Below are positions 26,062-35,107 of a DNA stretch of 64,000 nt, in pieces; the first letter of the stretch is position 1; each line of letters opens with the position of its first letter. This DNA comes from Picochlorum sp. SENEW3 (Eukaryota). The position numbers and the translations under genes were made by a program. The notes below the pieces were generated by a model. The model did not search any database. It had not been told where the DNA came from and worked only from the letters and a program-made list of their open reading frames with translations. The stretch lies in assembly GCA_034226945.1 (NCBI GenBank), contig CP120456.1:62001-126000 (forward strand). The letters are read 5' to 3'.

Positions 26062-27450
26062 TCACTCCATATGTTTGATAATATTTACTTTGCGTTTTTC
26101 GTGTATGACATTGCTCCCAGGACCATGCCTACTGGAGCCCTTGTGAACCGATCGCTCCTCCATGTAATGCTTCATTGCACTGGAAACAAGCTTGAACGAA
26201 GAAACTGATCTGTCTAGGTTCCCTTCCGTGACAGAACTGCTGTCAGCGACACGCCTCATACCATATTGTGAGCCCTCCAGCACTTTTTCATGGACACTTC
26301 GCCCAGCATCATGGGCCATGGCAAAGCTCCTTGCCGCAATCGTGTGCGCCACAGACTTGGCCCACGTTCGACCATGAACACTCTTCTCCTTCCTTACCGA
26401 ACGATCAAGTGCATCCAAATACATCTCCTTGTGCTTGCCATGTGAATGCATGCCGTGGCCATCAACAGCTGCGATCCCTTGCGAAATGTACCGCAGCCTC
26501 CTCATCTCCGCAACTGTTGCAGCTCCTTCTGCTATACTCGTTCCCAAATGACGTATTGTCAACCCGCCTTCCGTCTGAATCCATTCATGTCTTAGCACTT
26601 CCTTCGCAGTCAGCCTCTTCTCTGGGTCATACTGCAGCATGCCAATTAGCAGATGCTTTGCATCTGGCGAAAGATCAAGCCACCGAGGATCCCTGAGCCC
26701 AGGAGCTTCTTTGAGAGGTATTGTATGGTATTTCAACTTCTCACATTGATCCAAGTCCCAAGGCTTTCTTCCAACAAGCATGACAAAAAGGAGTACGCCC
26801 ATTCCAAACACATCCATTGATGGTGTGTGATATCCGCCATCAATAATCTCAGGTGCCACAAAGCCGGCAGAACCCAGACAGCCTCTCACCCTTTTCGACG
26901 CAGAAAATCGGACAGAAAGGCCTAAATCTATCAATTTAACCGGCGGTATTGGCTTACCTTTCTCTATTTCTTCGGTAAAGACAATGTTTTCTGGCTTGAT
27001 GTCCCTGTGCATAATTCCATGTGCATGCATATACGACACAGCCGAAGCCACTTGGGAAAAAATTCGAGACGCATCTTTTTCGCTGTACGTGTGCCTCATT
27101 TTGTATATACCATCAAGCAGAGAACACCCGTGCAAATACTCAAGCTCAAAAATGACCAACGTAGGAGAGGGAAGCACGCAGCGACATTTCACAATGTTCG
27201 GATGATCTAACTCGAGCAATAATTCACCCTCGGCTACCAATAATGCCGCCGTACTCCCATCCAAATCCGCATCATCAACAAAAACAATTTTCAGGGCAGC
27301 CTGTCGCCCATCATCATAGGCATGCTTTGCTAGAACCACTTTGGAAAATGAACCCCTCCCACATTCACGGATCTCGATCCATTCCTTGGCTGCCGGGTGC
27401 ATATCCCAATCCCTCTTGGGCACACTTGCACCTAGAGTGCAACAGGTCAT
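26062..27450 (-). CDS. CAMK-group Ser/Thr kinase without EF hands
   Basis: GRGSFSKV, ALK, HRDIKPEN, DLG and APE motifs. Confidence 0.9.
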   Translation of the reverse strand: MTCCTLGASVPKRDWDMHPAAKEWIEIRECGRGSFSKVVLAKHAYDDGRQAALKIVFVDDADLDGSTAALLVAEGELLLELDHPNIVKCRCVLPSPTLVIFELEYLHGCSLLDGIYKMRHTYSEKDASRIFSQVASAVSYMHAHGIMHRDIKPENIVFTEEIEKGKPIPPVKLIDLGLSVRFSASKRVRGCLGSAGFVAPEIIDGGYHTPSMDVFGMGVLLFVMLVGRKPWDLDQCEKLKYHTIPLKEAPGLRDPRWLDLSPDAKHLLIGMLQYDPEKRLTAKEVLRHEWIQTEGGLTIRHLGTSIAEGAATVAEMRRLRYISQGIAAVDGHGMHSHGKHKEMYLDALDRSVRKEKSVHGRTWAKSVAHTIAARSFAMAHDAGRSVHEKVLEGSQYGMRRVADSSSVTEGNLDRSVSSFKLVSSAMKHYMEERSVHKGSSRHGPGSNVIHEKRKVNIIKHME

Positions 27451-27485
27451 ACTACCAAGCTTGGCTCTTATAAGAGCCCTCTTTC

Positions 27486-27513
27486 AAAAAAAAAAAAAAA
27501 AACAAAAAAAAAA
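27486..27513. repeat. Poly(dA:dT) tract, A17-C-A10
   Basis: Read directly; lies 35 nt upstream of the kinase ATG. Confidence 0.9.
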
Positions 27514-27959
27514 CACCGACAACGTTCAAAAGTGGCAACCACAATATCACTCCCTGGTGACAAAAATGAGCCTTATACGATCCCTTCTAATCCAGCATCG
27601 CAAAAGAAAGGGTATTACGCAGGCCTCTTGCCCCAATTCACCCGTGTAGTAAGTATGCCTTCAGACACTGGAATGAACTGTCCGTTTCTATTCTCAATTC
27701 TTTGAACGCAACTCGCGAAGCTTCGGAAGCCAGGTATATTTCCTAAATAAATTACAGCAAACTGTCATCGCAGCATCTCTGTGTACAGGAAAAAGCATCA
27801 TGATGTGATGCCCTCGTAGCATGCGAGGCGCCCAGTTGGGCTTCAAAGCCCTACCGGTAGGGTACCCACCCATGGCCATGGGTACGTTGCAAAACCCCTC
27901 ACATGCACAAGGTAGTTTCGGGAGGGACCCTGACGGATACCTCAGTTGTATGCGAATAC

Positions 27960-29140
27960 TTATGATGTATTCATCAATCGAGCGCGTGACTCTGCATTCT
28001 CCTTCCACACCTCCCCTCCTTCATAAAACTCCTTCTTCCAGATTGGGACAGTGGCCTTGAGCTCATCAATAGCCCATGCACAACACTGCACATACAGTAT
28101 TCATCAATCAGTCACGATCATTCACGGTGATGTGACTGCTGGACAAAATGAAAAGGGCACAATCTTTGATCACACACAAGGATCAAGTGGAAGCCCAGTC
28201 ATACCTCTAAAGCATCTTTACGATGAGCAGATGACACTGCAATCAAAACGCTTGATTCCTTCACTGGAACTGTCCCAATTCTATGCCATATCCCCATCCG
28301 AGCGATGCCATTCCATCTCGATCGAGCATGCTCACACACCTCCCGCATCTTCTTCTTTGCCATGGGTTCATATGCCTCATATTCCAATCGAGTCACTCTC
28401 TTACCATCAAATGTATCCCTGGTTGTCCCAAGAAAAGTCGCCACCGCACCGCAGCTTTCATGTCGAACCCAGTCGGTGCATGCTGCCACATCCAGTGCAT
28501 GTGGAGTGATGGCCACCTTGAAAACACAGTCATCTTCCATCTGCATCGGGCTCGCACTCTTCCCCGGCCTGAAAGCCTTTACGACACTATCGTTTGTCTC
28601 GATGTACAGATGCTCCTTCATAATTCCAATACACGCGGGTACAGACACAAAAACTTCATCAATGGTCTCTCGAATTGCTTTTGGCTTTCCAGGGAGATTT
28701 AAAATCAACGTGTCTCCCCTCAACCCAGCCGTCTGGCGTGACAGAACAGCTGTGGGGACTACCTTCAAGCTAATGGCCCGCATCTGCTCCGCGTACCCTG
28801 GCATGAACCTGTCGCAGACCGCCTCTGTGGCCTCCGGAGTCACGTCCCTCAACGCTGGTCCTGTCCCACCCGTCGTCACAATCAGGCAGCAATCCTCCTC
28901 ATCAGCCATGTATTTTAATGTTTTCTGAATCAAATCATACTCATCCGGGATTACGTTGTACACAGCCACCCACGCACTTCGAATGGCTTCTCCAAAGAAT
29001 CGAAGAATCTCAGGACCACTCCGATCCTCATACGTCCCAGCACTGGCTCTATCACTAACAGTTAAAACCCCAAATTTTGCTACTCCTTTTCCGACATTCT
29101 GATCACCTCCGCTCAGAGGAACCGACTCCCCAAGCGACAT
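27960..29140 (-). CDS. Molybdopterin adenylyltransferase (MogA) fused to molybdopterin synthase catalytic subunit (MoaE/CNX6); exons 29140-28205, 28085-27960
   Basis: Mog[37 protein letters not shown]. Moa[30 protein letters not shown], and in exon 2 [14 protein letters not shown]. The domain junction lies inside one open exon. Confidence 0.9.
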
Positions 29141-29340
29141 GTCTGCCTCCAGACCCACTTTTGAGCATGTATACTATTGTGCTCGTTGATACTTCTCTAT
29201 AAAATTTTTTTATTTTCCAGTCTTACATGCATACATAATACCAGAGTTTGATATCTGTAGTCGTTACATACACATCCGATGAAGATTAAAAAAATGGTAC
29301 CATCATTGCATTGGCATCTTGCATGCAGATTGTACTGTGG

Positions 29341-30705
29341 CTACATGCATACATCGTCACCATAGTTGGTCAAGAGTACTTTGCCAGTATGTCGCTGTCG
29401 GTACAACTGAATTCCCTTTTCCCATTCCTCTACAGGCAGGCACTCCACCCTGCATACAATAATATGGTATATAGACAAGCTTTGAAAACCATCAGAATCA
29501 ATATATAGAGAATACATACATGACTGGCTTGATAACCTTTTGTCTGAAGAGCGCAACCACCCTGTCTACCAACCGTTCTTTTGCCTTCCATCCATCCTTC
29601 ATCTGCGCAAATCCACCAGTCAACCAGAATCCCCTCACAGAAATATTATTAAAGATGAGGCTTCCAGGTGGAATCTGAATAGGCTCTCGAGACATCCCCC
29701 CATACACCACAAGAGTCGCATCCTTGTCCAACACCTTGGCAACCTCCAAGCTATCCTTCCCGCCAATACAGTCCAATCCCAATTTTGGCCGGCCATGCTC
29801 CCATCCTTTCATCGCCCCCTGCAACTCATCTGACGTAACAACCAGCGACGACCCCATCTCTTTCAATTCATGCTCAGCCGCAGCTCTATCAGGCCTATCT
29901 CGTATGACACTAATGCATTTCACCCCCTTCTCATGTGCCAGCTGCAAAATGTACTTTCCAGTAGAGCTGGTACCACCCGTGTGAATAATGGTATCCCCCT
30001 CCTTCAAATCCACAAACTCCTCCAACAACCTCACTGCCGTTGGAGGATTGATCGCCATCGTCGCCGCCGTCGCAATGGGCAAATCGCTCGGAATCCTATA
30101 CCAGTGATGCTGCTCAAACACCCCATACGTCCTCCATGTCCCCTGCCCATGCTCTATGGGCACAGCCCGATCCCCGGGGCGAAATCTCGTCACATTCTTC
30201 CCGATCGCTTCCACCACAGCCACCCCTTCAAACCCTGGCGTGCAGGGCAGCGCCGGACGCAGAGGATACCGCCCTTCGATCGTGCTGATATCAGAAGGAT
30301 TAATCGGAGCCTGCACACATGCCACCCATCAGATTCCAAAAACCCTCCCCATTCGACACATTATATATCCTTGTAGAATATATGCCACCCATCCCATCCC
30401 CCAATATGCACGTGAACCCGACCCATTCGACGTCATCAACGCACCGCAAGAATTCTCATGAGAACTTGGTTATCCCCCAGGGATTGGGCAGTAGGCTTTT
30501 CCTGATGAATCATATGTAATGCATCCTCAACTTTGCCATACTCTTTCAATACCAGGGCCTTTCCCTTCCCGTCGTCAGGAAACTCGGTTGCCAGTGTCGA
30601 CAGTCCCGCTTCCATCCCCTGAAGATGTTGCAACGCACAGCATCGAGCTGCGTTCGTTGAATACATCAACTGTCGACAAATTGAACCCACGATGGATCTC
30701 TTCAT
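29341..30705 (-). CDS. MECR: Mitochondrial trans-2-enoyl-CoA/ACP reductase (MECR/Etr1); exons 30705-30445, 30310-29520, 29449-29341
   Basis: APINPSDI, GFEGVA, GTWRT, INPPTA, YGGMS, RGFW and GKVLL motifs; mitochondrial presequence. Confidence 0.9.
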
Positions 30706-30923
30706 GGTGAATTATATTTCACTATTCCTGTGAATACAACAATACCTCTGTGAGATGAGTGTGGGTGTTCTTTTCAGAAACATCCCATTCATCATCTAGA
30801 TCTCTAGAGATCCCTTAATTAAGGGATCTCCAAGTTTAGAGATCTGTCTCTGTGAGAAGTCGTCCTCTCATGCTCTTCCTGTACAGTCGATGTGGCGCAT
30901 GTCAGTAATAATAATGACTATTG

Positions 30924-32070: not shown

Positions 32071-32452
32071 CTCTGTTCTGAATTCTGTCCATTCGAATGA
32101 CAACTGTCACTGGACCATCGCAACCACCAGTCTCATTCTCTCTCAGTCAGTCAGTCTCCAGCCATCACCTAGGTGACATGAATCATAAAAAAAAAACAAC
32201 AGGAATCATCCAAAGAAAGAAAGAAAGAAATAAAGATACACACACACACCCTAATTAGGTTTTTGAGAATTCATGAATTGATCAAGAGATCTGTGAAGAT
32301 CTCGAGACTCTCTCCAACCTACAGAGCCCTCTCCCTCCTGCAAGTATTCATTCATATAAATTATATATATTCGTAACAGTGGGTTTAGAATAGGGCGCCA
32401 TGGTGGAATAGGCGTGTGTGTTTCCATAATCGACCGACTGACGAGTCAAAGC

Positions 32453-35107
32453 ATGGGTCGTCACGACGCGCATGGCTCCTCTGGTGAGGAAGGATATAGT
32501 GGGAGTATTAATATTGGACTACATAGGAAGAAATTGGAGAGACTGAGTGCTGTGGAGGATATTCAGGTGGAGGTCTCCGTGTCTGAATTAGAACGTGCTA
32601 TTGAAGAGCGAGGACTGGACCAGGTGATGGTGGTGCGGTCTCAGGAGAAGGATGGATTGAATATGATGATTCCAGAGGATAGATTGGGGTTCGATGGGTT
32701 GGAGCGGTATGTGGATCCTTCACTGGAGATTCCGACGATTGATGTGGAGACGCAGGGGGAGGGGCCATTGATGTCTCTTCGGGATTTGAAGGCGTATTTT
32801 GATACCCCTGAGAAGAATAGAAGTCGTTTGTTGAATGTGGTGAGTTTTAATCTGGGGTATACGGCTTTGGATGGGTATATTGTGCCACCAGCTGTGGTGA
32901 GGGACATGGATGTGGTGGGACGGGTGTGGCCCAGTGGGGATGCGCGGTATCAGAAGGATGATAATCCGTTCTCGGAAACGCATACGAAGAAAATGGAGGA
33001 GGCATATTCGTGTCCGAAGACGTTGGCGTACTTGCTGATGGGTCCAGCAGGGGCCTACACGGATTGGCACGTGGACATGGGGGGTAGTTCTGTGTGGTAC
33101 CACGTGATTCGTGGGAGTAAAATATTTATGGCTGCACCTGATACAGAGCATAATAAGAATGAATTTGTGTCGTGGTCTTCGTCAGAAGAGCAGGTGGAGT
33201 TTTTAGGTGATAGGTTGGAAAGGTGTGTTCGACTGAGGCTCATGGCAGGGGATACGCTGTTTCTCCCTGGTGGGTGGTTTCATGCGGTGTCGACGCCAAT
33301 GGATAGTCTTGTCGTGGGTGGGAATTTCATCAATGTGTATAGATTGAAGAATGCGCTCGGTGTTGTGGATATTGAGCGCAGACTGAGAATTGATTCTGAT
33401 GCGCATTATCCAAAATTCAAAATGCTCATGTATTATGCTGCCTGTGATCTTGTGAGGAGGAGTCAACGAGGGCGGGCATTATATGATGATGGAGCAGTGC
33501 ATGGTGTGCCGGCATTGTCTGAGATGGAGATCAAAGGTCTGCCGTATTTGGCTGATTATTTGGAGCACTTTGCAAAGAAGAGGAGGAGAAATGCAAAACA
33601 GAGGCAGATGCGGACAATAGTGGATATTTTGCGGTATGAAATTGAGCGGTACAATCTCACAGATGGAGAGGGTGATGATGCCTCTTCTACACCATGTTCC
33701 ACAGAGAAGGCAAAGGAGAATAAACAGCCATCTCCAGAGATTGCGTCTCTCTGCAATGAAGATGCTCGTACAGAGGCGGACCAGAAGAAGACAAATAAGA
33801 AAGCTGAGAAGAAGAGGAAAATGCGTGAGACATCTGTAGAAGGTGACAGCATTATTGATTTGACAAAGGATTTGCCTGGAGAAGGTGAAGAGATGGACTC
33901 GGATCCAAAGCCAGAGTCTGAGCCTCAGCGGGGACCTGACAAGAAGGGGGCTTCCGCAAAGCTTACAGGCAAAGTTGTGTCATCGAAAGAGGCCAGTGGC
34001 GCACCGCGAAAAGAGGTGAGTAGGAACAATGGTTTCTTTCCAAAGTATAGTGAAAAGGCCTTTGCTGGTCAGAATGAGGATGTTCGCATGAAAGCTTTGC
34101 AAATTCATGCTGCTGTTGCTTCGAATCTCGTAAAAGAGAAGAAGGTTAAAAAGACGAAGCAAGCTTCTCAGGCAACGGATAGTGATACAGTTCTTCGTAA
34201 GGCAGTGGAGCGTAGATTGATTCACATTGAGAAGCTTGTCCGGCAACTGGAAAGTGATCGACGGGTATATGCTCAACATGCGTCTGGAGAAATTCTCTTG
34301 AAGGATCACGGGGAGAAGATCCGAAACAATGTCGATATGTTGTCAAAAGATCTGAGTAAACAAGCAAAGGAATTCGCTAAATTTGTTGAGGATACTCCGA
34401 AGGCCACGGAGCATGTGCGTGTTCTCAAGCCACGATTCTCCAAAACAATCGAGTATTTGGATCGTGAGACACACCGCCACCAAGGGCATCGAGAGGAGCA
34501 TATTGCAAACCCTATGAGTCCAAAATATCATGGTAGGGAGAACACGCAGCCACGTAGAGCAGGGGGGGCGATGGCAACGCAGTTCCGGTTAACAAAGGCA
34601 TCGCCGTTGTCAGTCGATACTCGCATTGAAAAAGAGATCAAGCAGATGAATGGATTGCCACGTGGAAAGCCTCAAACTGACCACTCGAAACAGCTCGACG
34701 CTGTAGTATCAGCTAAAACTCCAGATCAGGCTAAGCCGAAAGGGAAATTGCCAACAGAATCATTGAAAACCACTGGAAAGGACACTTCCGGTGCAGACAT
34801 CATCACTAGAGCACCTACACCCAATCAGACAGATGATGCTCCAAAGCAGACCTCAGCACAAAGGCCGAGAAATGTCATGGACAGCAGGACCTTACGGGTA
34901 GCTCTCAACGTTCTGAGGCAGGAAAATAGATATATGACTCCTAAAGAAATCACTCGATTTGCCTTGGAGCAGGGCATGTTGGATTTCAGGAGCGATTTGG
35001 GAGATTGTATCGGATTCGAACTGTCGGTCGAGTCGCAGGTGCCAAATTCTCGAATCACTCAAGTTAACTGCAGATATGGACTTAAAGACTGGAATACTAC
35101 TCCATAG
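32453..35107 (+). CDS. JmjC histone demethylase (KDM2/7-like) with C-terminal HARE-HTH-like domain
   Basis: TDWHVDMGGSSVWYH, K in GSKIF, and WFHAVSTP Fe/2OG ligands; C-terminal ALNVLRQENRYMTPKEITRFALEQG...YGLKDW. Confidence 0.85.
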   Translation: MGRHDAHGSSGEEGYSGSINIGLHRKKLERLSAVEDIQVEVSVSELERAIEERGLDQVMVVRSQEKDGLNMMIPEDRLGFDGLERYVDPSLEIPTIDVETQGEGPLMSLRDLKAYFDTPEKNRSRLLNVVSFNLGYTALDGYIVPPAVVRDMDVVGRVWPSGDARYQKDDNPFSETHTKKMEEAYSCPKTLAYLLMGPAGAYTDWHVDMGGSSVWYHVIRGSKIFMAAPDTEHNKNEFVSWSSSEEQVEFLGDRLERCVRLRLMAGDTLFLPGGWFHAVSTPMDSLVVGGNFINVYRLKNALGVVDIERRLRIDSDAHYPKFKMLMYYAACDLVRRSQRGRALYDDGAVHGVPALSEMEIKGLPYLADYLEHFAKKRRRNAKQRQMRTIVDILRYEIERYNLTDGEGDDASSTPCSTEKAKENKQPSPEIASLCNEDARTEADQKKTNKKAEKKRKMRETSVEGDSIIDLTKDLPGEGEEMDSDPKPESEPQRGPDKKGASAKLTGKVVSSKEASGAPRKEVSRNNGFFPKYSEKAFAGQNEDVRMKALQIHAAVASNLVKEKKVKKTKQASQATDSDTVLRKAVERRLIHIEKLVRQLESDRRVYAQHASGEILLKDHGEKIRNNVDMLSKDLSKQAKEFAKFVEDTPKATEHVRVLKPRFSKTIEYLDRETHRHQGHREEHIANPMSPKYHGRENTQPRRAGGAMATQFRLTKASPLSVDTRIEKEIKQMNGLPRGKPQTDHSKQLDAVVSAKTPDQAKPKGKLPTESLKTTGKDTSGADIITRAPTPNQTDDAPKQTSAQRPRNVMDSRTLRVALNVLRQENRYMTPKEITRFALEQGMLDFRSDLGDCIGFELSVESQVPNSRITQVNCRYGLKDWNTTP

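Follow-up and report, generated by a model that had tools for sequence, protein, structure and literature searches.

A MogA-MoaE fusion gene in the molybdenum cofactor pathway of Picochlorum sp. SENEW3

Described arrangements of the molybdopterin enzymes

The chemistry of the two steps considered here is already known: a MoaE dimer with two MoaD subunits makes molybdopterin (MPT), and a trimeric G domain, which binds MPT tightly (KD 0.1 μM for Cnx1G), adenylates it, the E domain then inserting molybdenum (PMC9458074, PMC9916421). In plant Cnx1, gephyrin, and NIT-9, the trimer-forming G domain is tethered to the dimer-forming E (MoeA) domain of the downstream step, and recent surveys, in their available portions, give the eukaryotic arrangements as E-G, G-E, or separate (PMC13262936, PMC11733289, PMC11489736). 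G-E fusions have been modeled as a hexamer (PMC11489736), and in Chlamydomonas separate and chimeric E/G arrangements are all functional (PMC4620153), so that the benefit of tethering may be small. How MPT synthase passes its product on to the G domain is still an unsettled question; the Arabidopsis enzyme was, unexpectedly, found to dock on E, with Cnx6 contacting Cnx1E more than Cnx1G and cross-linking to E only, and a natural interface between G and MoaE is therefore not established (PMC3638830). Other fusions within the pathway are MoaX (MoaD-MoaE) and MoaC-MogA/MoaB (PMC11237513, PMC9916421), and many fusion partners are recorded for both MoaE and G domains (PMC11237513). In chlorophytes, CNX1G is an unfused protein of ∼200 residues, which in the case of Chlamydomonas complements an E. 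coli mutant (PMC10385300), and CNX6 (MOCS2B), normally a stand-alone protein of ∼150–200 residues, has its own gene.

The gene analyzed here, from Picochlorum sp. SENEW3, instead ties the G domain to MoaE, its upstream neighbor in the pathway, and leaves E free. It shares with Cnx1, gephyrin, and NIT-9 the same proximity logic for a labile pterin, and it would have rewired the pathway of plants, where G is tied to E and MPT synthase docks on E, so that G is joined to MPT synthase instead. We favor, at a probability of roughly 0.6, the reading that its product is a bifunctional MoaE/MogA protein with a flexible tether that arose by a single fusion of native genes, probably at the nitrate cluster. 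The fusion adds to the domain arrangements known for eukaryotic Moco enzymes. As a G-MoaE fusion that occurs naturally, in a single copy, and in an alga that can be cultured, it opens the hand-off to a direct test by comparison of fused with split proteins.

Gene structure, transcripts, and the two domains

The window is a 64,000-nucleotide stretch of contig CP120456.1 (assembly GCA_034226945.1, positions 62,001 to 126,000). On its minus strand, an ATG at 29140 opens a frame (29140-28199) whose translation is 313 aa long; the spliced gene (exons 29140-28205 and 28085-27960) encodes 353 aa. Its features are as follows.

28205..29140, minus strand: exon 1 (codons 1–312), with a short N-terminal extension, the whole MogA/G domain, the linker, and the first 106 MoaE residues (open reading frame, Pfam; lies under spliced contigs)
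28086..28204, minus strand: intron, 119 nt, GT-AG, phase 0 (predicted; exactly skipped in contigs of runs X5, X7, and X8)
27960..28085, minus strand: exon 2, 126 nt, with MoaE residues 313–353, including K322 and K329, and the stop codon (splice model, protein search, residue mapping)
28562..29080, minus strand: MogA-type G domain (CNX1G, MPT adenylyltransferase), residues 21–193 (NF006932, PDB matches, residue mapping)
28523..28561, minus strand: inter-domain linker, 13 residues (194–206), predicted disordered (length comparison, pLDDT)
28205..28522, minus strand: exon-1 part of the MoaE (CNX6/MOCS2B) domain, residues 207–312 (PF02391, residue mapping)

The exon-1 frame ends at the GT donor, and removal of the intron together with exon 2 restores the 353-aa protein. 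The sequence-only reading had placed both domains in one uninterrupted exon; the domain junction does lie inside exon 1, but MoaE is complete only after the 119-nt intron and exon 2. The short linker named in that reading was located at residues 193–204. Compared with the 354-aa gene models of Picochlorum renovo and Picochlorum sp. BPE23, the product differs at five and three positions, respectively. The intron appears to be common to the proteins of cluster P0003, which as called end at the same point, and it is absent from three metagenomic loci that carry the fusion (L096-L098), that is, it has been gained or lost within the clade.

Four of the 19 listed sequencing runs were chosen and aligned to 27500-30800; none of them is recorded as RNA, their RNA status being a tool's guess, and we judged runs to be RNA on the basis of precise splicing. 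The intron is spliced out at exactly 28086-28204 in three of the four, and the remaining run (X1, probably DNA) has no splice joint. In two runs from two studies, a single spliced contig bridges the domain junction (X5, 27674-29635; X8, 28010-28910), so that the fusion read from the sequence holds up in transcripts spanning both domain parts; run X7 is also spliced, but as it extends just ∼5 nt into the G side we do not count it as bridging. Because spliced contigs bridge the junction, the fusion is neither a gene-model artefact nor a pseudogene. At least 12 substitutions in the coding sequence are found among the reads (nine of the 12 listed are synonymous), and run X5 has an in-frame 3-nt insertion in the linker, at 28532.

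It should be noted that the contigs do not delimit the transcript, since the X5 contig extends into the upstream enoyl-reductase gene. TGTAA is a poly(A) signal in chlorophytes, and the motif is found on both sides of the gene:

29141..29340, minus strand: 200-nt gap from the enoyl-reductase stop codon to the start of the fusion, containing TGTAA twice, at 29268 and 29227 (motif scan)
27752..27756, minus strand: TGTAA ∼200 nt downstream of the stop codon, putative poly(A) signal (motif scan)

Within the gap, 29165-29275 has no cover in runs X7 and X8 and a continuous contig in X5; as depth is low in X7 and X8, we do not take the missing cover as proof of separate transcripts. The spliced X5 contig across enoyl reductase and fusion may reflect overlapping untranslated regions or a two-gene transcript. 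A 714-aa database model (P0228) that merges the enoyl reductase with the fusion was rejected, because none of the joints listed corresponds to the two introns that it requires upstream of the G domain; the merge obscures the fusion in the database.

The N-terminal half is identified as MogA by the NCBIfam equivalog NF006932 (240.2 bits against a cut-off of 158), with the Pfam MoCF_biosynth domain at residues 24–164 (E = 1e-26). Against PDB sequences it scores 247 bits with Shewanella Mog and 163 with E. coli MogA, compared with 111 with gephyrin-G and Cnx1G, in agreement with the earlier assignment to the MogA rather than the gephyrin type. That type had also been taken as a special, proteobacterial feature, a reading that finds no support here: the same type is the normal stand-alone CNX1G of chlorophytes, and the N-terminal half is an ortholog of chlorophyte CNX1G, up to 77% identical over the matched part, with CNX1E separate in both. 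D66 and D99 align with D49 and D82 of E. coli MogA, which are essential for adenylylation (PMC9458074), and the GGTG loop is G91-G94; both aspartates are conserved in this protein and in every one of the 13 fused relatives aligned. By analogy with solved homologs, the G half would form a homotrimer and make MPT-AMP. In every fused G domain aligned, residue 127 (28760-28762) is Val or Ile, a clade-specific change; other chlorophyte and bacterial MogA proteins have Tyr, His, or Phe at this site (F110 in E. coli).

The C-terminal half corresponds to CNX6/MOCS2B (best named stand-alone match 62% identical, from Nannochloris desiccata), here with a G domain N-terminal to it. In the exon-1 frame, PF02391 covers residues 212–312 (E = 2e-35; 121.8 bits against a cut-off of 23.4), and the domain, complete after splicing, has the MoaE fold in the structure model, which identifies it as MoaE. 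The proteobacterial MoaE equivalog NF007959 is not reached (59.5 versus 175 bits, exon 1 only), as expected for a eukaryotic-type MoaE. R241, H306, and R307 align with the E. coli MoaE anion pocket R39/H103/R104, which is built from both monomers (PMC9916421); R307 also matches the MoaE dimerization arginine. In exon 2, K322 and K329 align with E. coli K119 and K126, which we take to be the catalytic lysines. The window protein and all 13 of the fused relatives aligned have equivalents of these five residues (R39, H103, R104, K119, and K126). E. coli R140 corresponds to A343, and the site is likewise non-Arg in seven of seven eukaryotic stand-alone MoaE proteins aligned. As judged by these residues, neither domain appears inactive.

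To place the gene among the other Moco genes, we searched the genome (13.85 Mb in 14 contigs). Profile search gave one MoaE match, this gene, and four PF00994 matches (this gene, the stand-alone CNX1E, and two FAD-synthase-like proteins), and a query with the fusion protein matched only its own two exons; no stand-alone MogA or MoaE copy was found by these profile and protein searches, of which the protein query runs exon by exon, so that a much-fragmented gene could be missed. The protein differs from MoaX in having no ThiS match, the sole ThiS locus being a separate MoaD/CNX7 gene on C1 (95-aa model ending in Gly-Gly), and from Cnx1 and gephyrin in having no MoeA domain by Pfam, the single MoeA_N match being a separate CNX1E gene on C8. 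Nor is it a MoaC-MogA/MoaB protein, since PRK03604 scores 117 versus 285 bits over the G part only and MoaC (CNX3) is one separate gene on C3. MoaX needs cleavage to free the MoaD C terminus, whereas the present fusion does not, because CNX7 is separate. MOT1 and nitrate reductase genes are present. The fusion is thus almost certainly the alga's only MPT-synthase large subunit and its only MPT adenylyltransferase, in one bifunctional protein. CNX2 (MoaA) appears twice, at C5:951411 in the nitrate cluster and at C10:425929; the algal table in the available portion of PMC4620153 lists one CNX2 per genome.

Range, ancestry, and genomic setting of the fusion

Among the best 120 of 7998 matches, 14 clusters have both domains; the named members of the fused clusters looked up are all Picochlorum, and the rest are environmental proteins. 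In the named non-Picochlorum chlorophytes among the matches listed, the G domain stands alone (∼200–250 aa):

Nannochloris desiccata, Parachlorella, Micractinium, Prototheca, Coccomyxa, and Trebouxia
Chlamydomonas, Volvox, Tetraselmis, Bryopsis, and Pedinophyceae

For many of these a stand-alone CNX6 was also seen, and in no alga did we see CNX1G and CNX6 as unfused neighbors. Literature searches, which lay mostly outside subscription journals, found no report of a G-MoaE fusion, and none is described in the available portions of PMC6147048, PMC13262936, PMC11489736, PMC11733289, PMC11237513, PMC1779556, PMC3638830, PMC10385300, PMC9458074, PMC9916421, PMC12366059, PMC12198440, PMC11092101, and PMC4620153. 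The MogA-MoaE fusion is apparently undescribed in eukaryotes. The S1 Table of PMC13262936, as far as available, gives ∼150-residue N-terminal extensions for the G domains of Micromonas commoda, Diacronema lutheri, and Chrysochromulina tobinii, about the size of MoaE or MoaC; by term search, the 21 supplementary files of that paper hold accessions but no such G sequences, and no Picochlorum.

Separate phylogenies of the two domains (quick IQ-TREE maximum likelihood, with SH-aLRT support only) place each half as one clade within green algae. The 14 fused MoaE halves form a clade (support 97) within the green-algal clade (93), and the fused G halves form one (99–100) within the chlorophyte clade (97–99), itself within the proteobacterial-type MogA (98). 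None of the environmental stand-alone rows falls inside the fusion clade (0 of nine for MoaE, 0 of three for G), and the fusion is kept in all 14 clusters at ∼30% amino-acid divergence; its sister group is not a resolved branch in these quick trees. The G trees are without plant Cnx1G, gephyrin-G, and prasinophyte G sequences, and two of their rows (L017 and L032) are MoaB rather than MogA; the MoaE outgroup includes L083, from an unpublished genome (G001), on which no claim rests. One further protein, P0016, encoded on one short contig, continues from a G domain of the fusion clade into a lysine-rich tail of unrelated sequence and is probably an assembly chimera.

The sequence-only reading had raised a horizontally acquired MogA as a possibility. 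Its acquisition from bacteria within this lineage is contradicted by the diagnostic residues, 11 of which are common to the fusion clade and 22 stand-alone proteins of chlorophytes and none to the fusion clade and 91 prokaryotic MogA, and by the position of the G half inside the chlorophyte clade; in a tree with the same 91 prokaryotic MogA sequences, the green sequences form one side of a branch with support 99. On a G alignment reduced by 31 rows to 41, approximately unbiased (AU) tests failed to reject a grouping of the fusions with bacterial MogA (p = 0.24 and 0.51), and a native G half is carried by the diagnostic-site count and the larger tree, not by these tests. Shewanella MogA is 65–68% identical to the G half, and E. 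coli G is reported to cluster with that of C. reinhardtii (PMC11489736). As the bacterial-looking MogA is the ordinary chlorophyte CNX1G, any transfer must be ancient; such an ancient transfer of MogA into chlorophytes is plausible. Taken together, the trees very probably reflect a single event in which two native nuclear genes fused in the common ancestor of a Picochlorum-like clade, for which the fusion may serve as a marker.

The same pair of domains occurs elsewhere. ESM Atlas clusters of 56–91 members (10 matches in the set, mostly Actinomycetota) carry PF00994 in 100% and PF02391 in 94–100% of members, and the fusion's feature scores to the Actinomycetota Mog+MoaE clusters are 0.93–0.97, the domain order there not being given. 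Both halves of the fusion group with green algae, apart from the unfused Mog and MoaE of Arthrobacter and Nocardia, and this tree position argues against common descent with the actinobacterial clusters. A query in reverse order against 1.84 billion representatives returned, among 150 listed, five MoaE-then-G proteins (the query included) and one Picochlorum-type fusion:

Reverse-order MoaE-G proteins, each from one or two sequences: P0211, P0402, P0405, P0427, and P0499

These lie on separate branches outside the fusion clade in both trees, which indicates an independent origin. The sequence-only reading had listed MoaD-MoaE and MoaC-MogA as the fusions known to it; we found no description of the present type for eukaryotes, but the pair is present in Actinomycetota clusters and, reversed, elsewhere, and the fusion is convergent with uncharacterized bacterial proteins. 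P0211 (a single sequence on a 1.2-kb contig) is a eukaryote-like reverse fusion of MoaE, an Asn-rich linker, and a MoaB-type G domain that is sister to a MoaB-type protein of Amoeba proteus. In 83 prokaryotic loci, the two domains were never in one frame; mog and moaE were separate open reading frames in 15 of them, which include overlapping neighbors in Arthrobacter and Nocardia, an arrangement that is a natural precursor of such fusions. An apparent one-piece match from Ralstonia was rejected as a plain MogA with a spurious extension, and in plasmid searches with 145 and 96 records the 30 rows listed contained no fusion, three of the first set being checked at the level of open reading frames.

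In the window, the fusion has an enoyl reductase and MED7 upstream and a protein kinase and a SKI2-like helicase downstream.

26062..27483, minus strand: downstream protein kinase, synteny marker (Pfam; paralog comparison)

A paralog of this kinase, 62% identical, edges the nitrate cluster on C5 (L179:8117-9451), which here comprises NR, NRT2, NAR2, NiR, MOT1, CNX2, and the kinase; a Picochlorum nitrate cluster with MOT1 and CNX2 has been published (PMC12198440). Intronless copies of the fusion are found in three of 80 metagenomic loci, two of which (L096 and L097) represent one lineage. The gene order in L097 (61% GC) is TspO, Deg protease, fusion, NRT2, NAR2, nitrite reductase, and in L098 (44% GC) it is TspO, Deg, fusion, CNX2, kinase, SKI2; the window has fusion, kinase, SKI2, and all orientations are compatible with one ancestral order. 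On the evidence of these two metagenomic lineages, the fusion probably arose while both genes lay at the nitrate/Moco cluster, an example of a metabolic gene cluster giving rise to a fusion, and the copy in the present genome would later have been separated from it. The algal clusters listed in the available portion of PMC4620153 include CNX2 and CNX5, with CNX1G and CNX6 absent. The kinase pair may mark a duplication or translocation by which the fusion came to lie apart from the cluster; the kinase is linked to the nitrate cluster in several lineages and may be a regulator. Beside NR on C5 lies an open reading frame with no Pfam match (L178:3754-5115), possibly an unannotated member of the nitrate cluster, with a 45% identical match (L098:2-1003) upstream of the fusion.

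Assembly, hand-off, and alternative readings

An AlphaFold2 model from a 122-row alignment (mean pLDDT 87, pTM 0.67; an earlier fold on a 14-sequence alignment was unusable, with a mean pLDDT of 50) shows two well-predicted domains separated by residues 195–201 with pLDDT < 50. Its structural matches include MogA of Shewanella and Aquifex as well as human MOCS2B (rmsd 0.7–0.8 Å to the latter), and no solved chain among the PDB structure matches listed covers both domains. The linker varies between 13 and 45 residues across 14 relatives and its sequence is unconserved, which, together with the low pLDDT, makes a flexible tether with co-expression likelier than a tunnel.

From what is known of the families, the MoaE halves would dimerize, bind two separately encoded CNX7 subunits, and convert cPMP to MPT; the tethered G domain would then catch and adenylate MPT, and MPT-AMP would pass to the free-standing CNX1E. 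The 13-residue linker may keep a G active site near each synthase site, acting as a flexible tether that provides high local concentration and fixed 1:1 co-expression, with no closed tunnel. Because its pocket is built from both monomers, MoaE needs to be a dimer, which in combination with a trimeric G domain implies at least a hexamer; by analogy with the solved families, we lean toward expecting a hexameric or larger assembly. Whether tethering brings a measurable benefit we regard as evenly balanced. Should the Arabidopsis Cnx6-Cnx1E contact be conserved, tying G to CNX6 would unite all three activities. More speculatively, and with rather low probability, the three-fold G and two-fold MoaE axes might drive self-assembly with CNX7 into a closed particle, at least hexameric, that recruits CNX1E through the MoaE-E contact and takes cPMP to Moco with no release of MPT, that is, a second, independent wiring of a Moco metabolon, born in an algal nitrate cluster.

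The main competitor to a useful tether is a neutral fusion, in which both activities are real and clustered neighbors lost a stop codon and spacer by compaction, an event that does no harm and is not easily reversed. The very short spacers between genes (200 nt upstream of this one), the cluster context in relatives, the free drift of linker length between 13 and 45 aa, the separate genes of the named non-Picochlorum chlorophytes seen, and the readiness of MoaE and G to join many partners (PMC11237513) all fit such a history, but retention in 14 of 14 clusters at ∼30% divergence, with no tested stand-alone row inside the clade, speaks against it, as does the independent joining of the same two domains elsewhere, which functional coupling predicts; we consider it possible, at well under even odds. 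Strict channeling through a specific G-MoaE interface in a defined oligomer (e.g., two G trimers bridged by three MoaE dimers), with MPT never in bulk solvent, is unlikely. Both oligomer-forming domains are intact, including the dimerization arginine R307, the linker is just 13 aa here, residue 127 is V/I in all fused proteins aligned versus aromatic or His elsewhere, and fusion matters in other Mo-insertases (PMC11489736); against this, the relatives' linkers reach 45 aa and are unconserved, no solved structure has both domains, the Arabidopsis G-Cnx6 contact is weak (PMC3638830), and the reverse domain order also exists.

Two further explanations are highly improbable. A lineage-specific transfer of the fusion or of its MogA half from bacteria, for instance as a ready-made actinobacterial Mog-MoaE, could call on the bacterial clusters with both domains, on the 65–68% identity to Shewanella MogA, and on the AU tests on the pruned set, but the MoaE half nests in green algae, far from that of Arthrobacter and Nocardia, the G half has 11 diagnostic residues in common with chlorophytes and 0 with prokaryotes (branch support 99), and the GC3 of the halves (0.52 and 0.46) matches that of neighboring genes (0.48). 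An artefact or half-dead protein, that is, an annotation merge of two genes or one inactive domain, has in its favor that merges do occur at this locus, as in the wrongly merged 714-aa P0228, and is opposed by a junction that lies inside one exon and is bridged by spliced contigs, by the fused, intronless genes in L096-L098, and by the lack of a second copy of either domain together with the kept catalytic residues.

Two minor features of the window may be added. The frame at 32360-35107 encodes a JmjC-domain protein whose C terminus matches HARE-HTH weakly, with a score below the cut-off, and a 28-nt A-rich run (27487-27514; T-rich on the coding strand) lies just upstream of the kinase frame.
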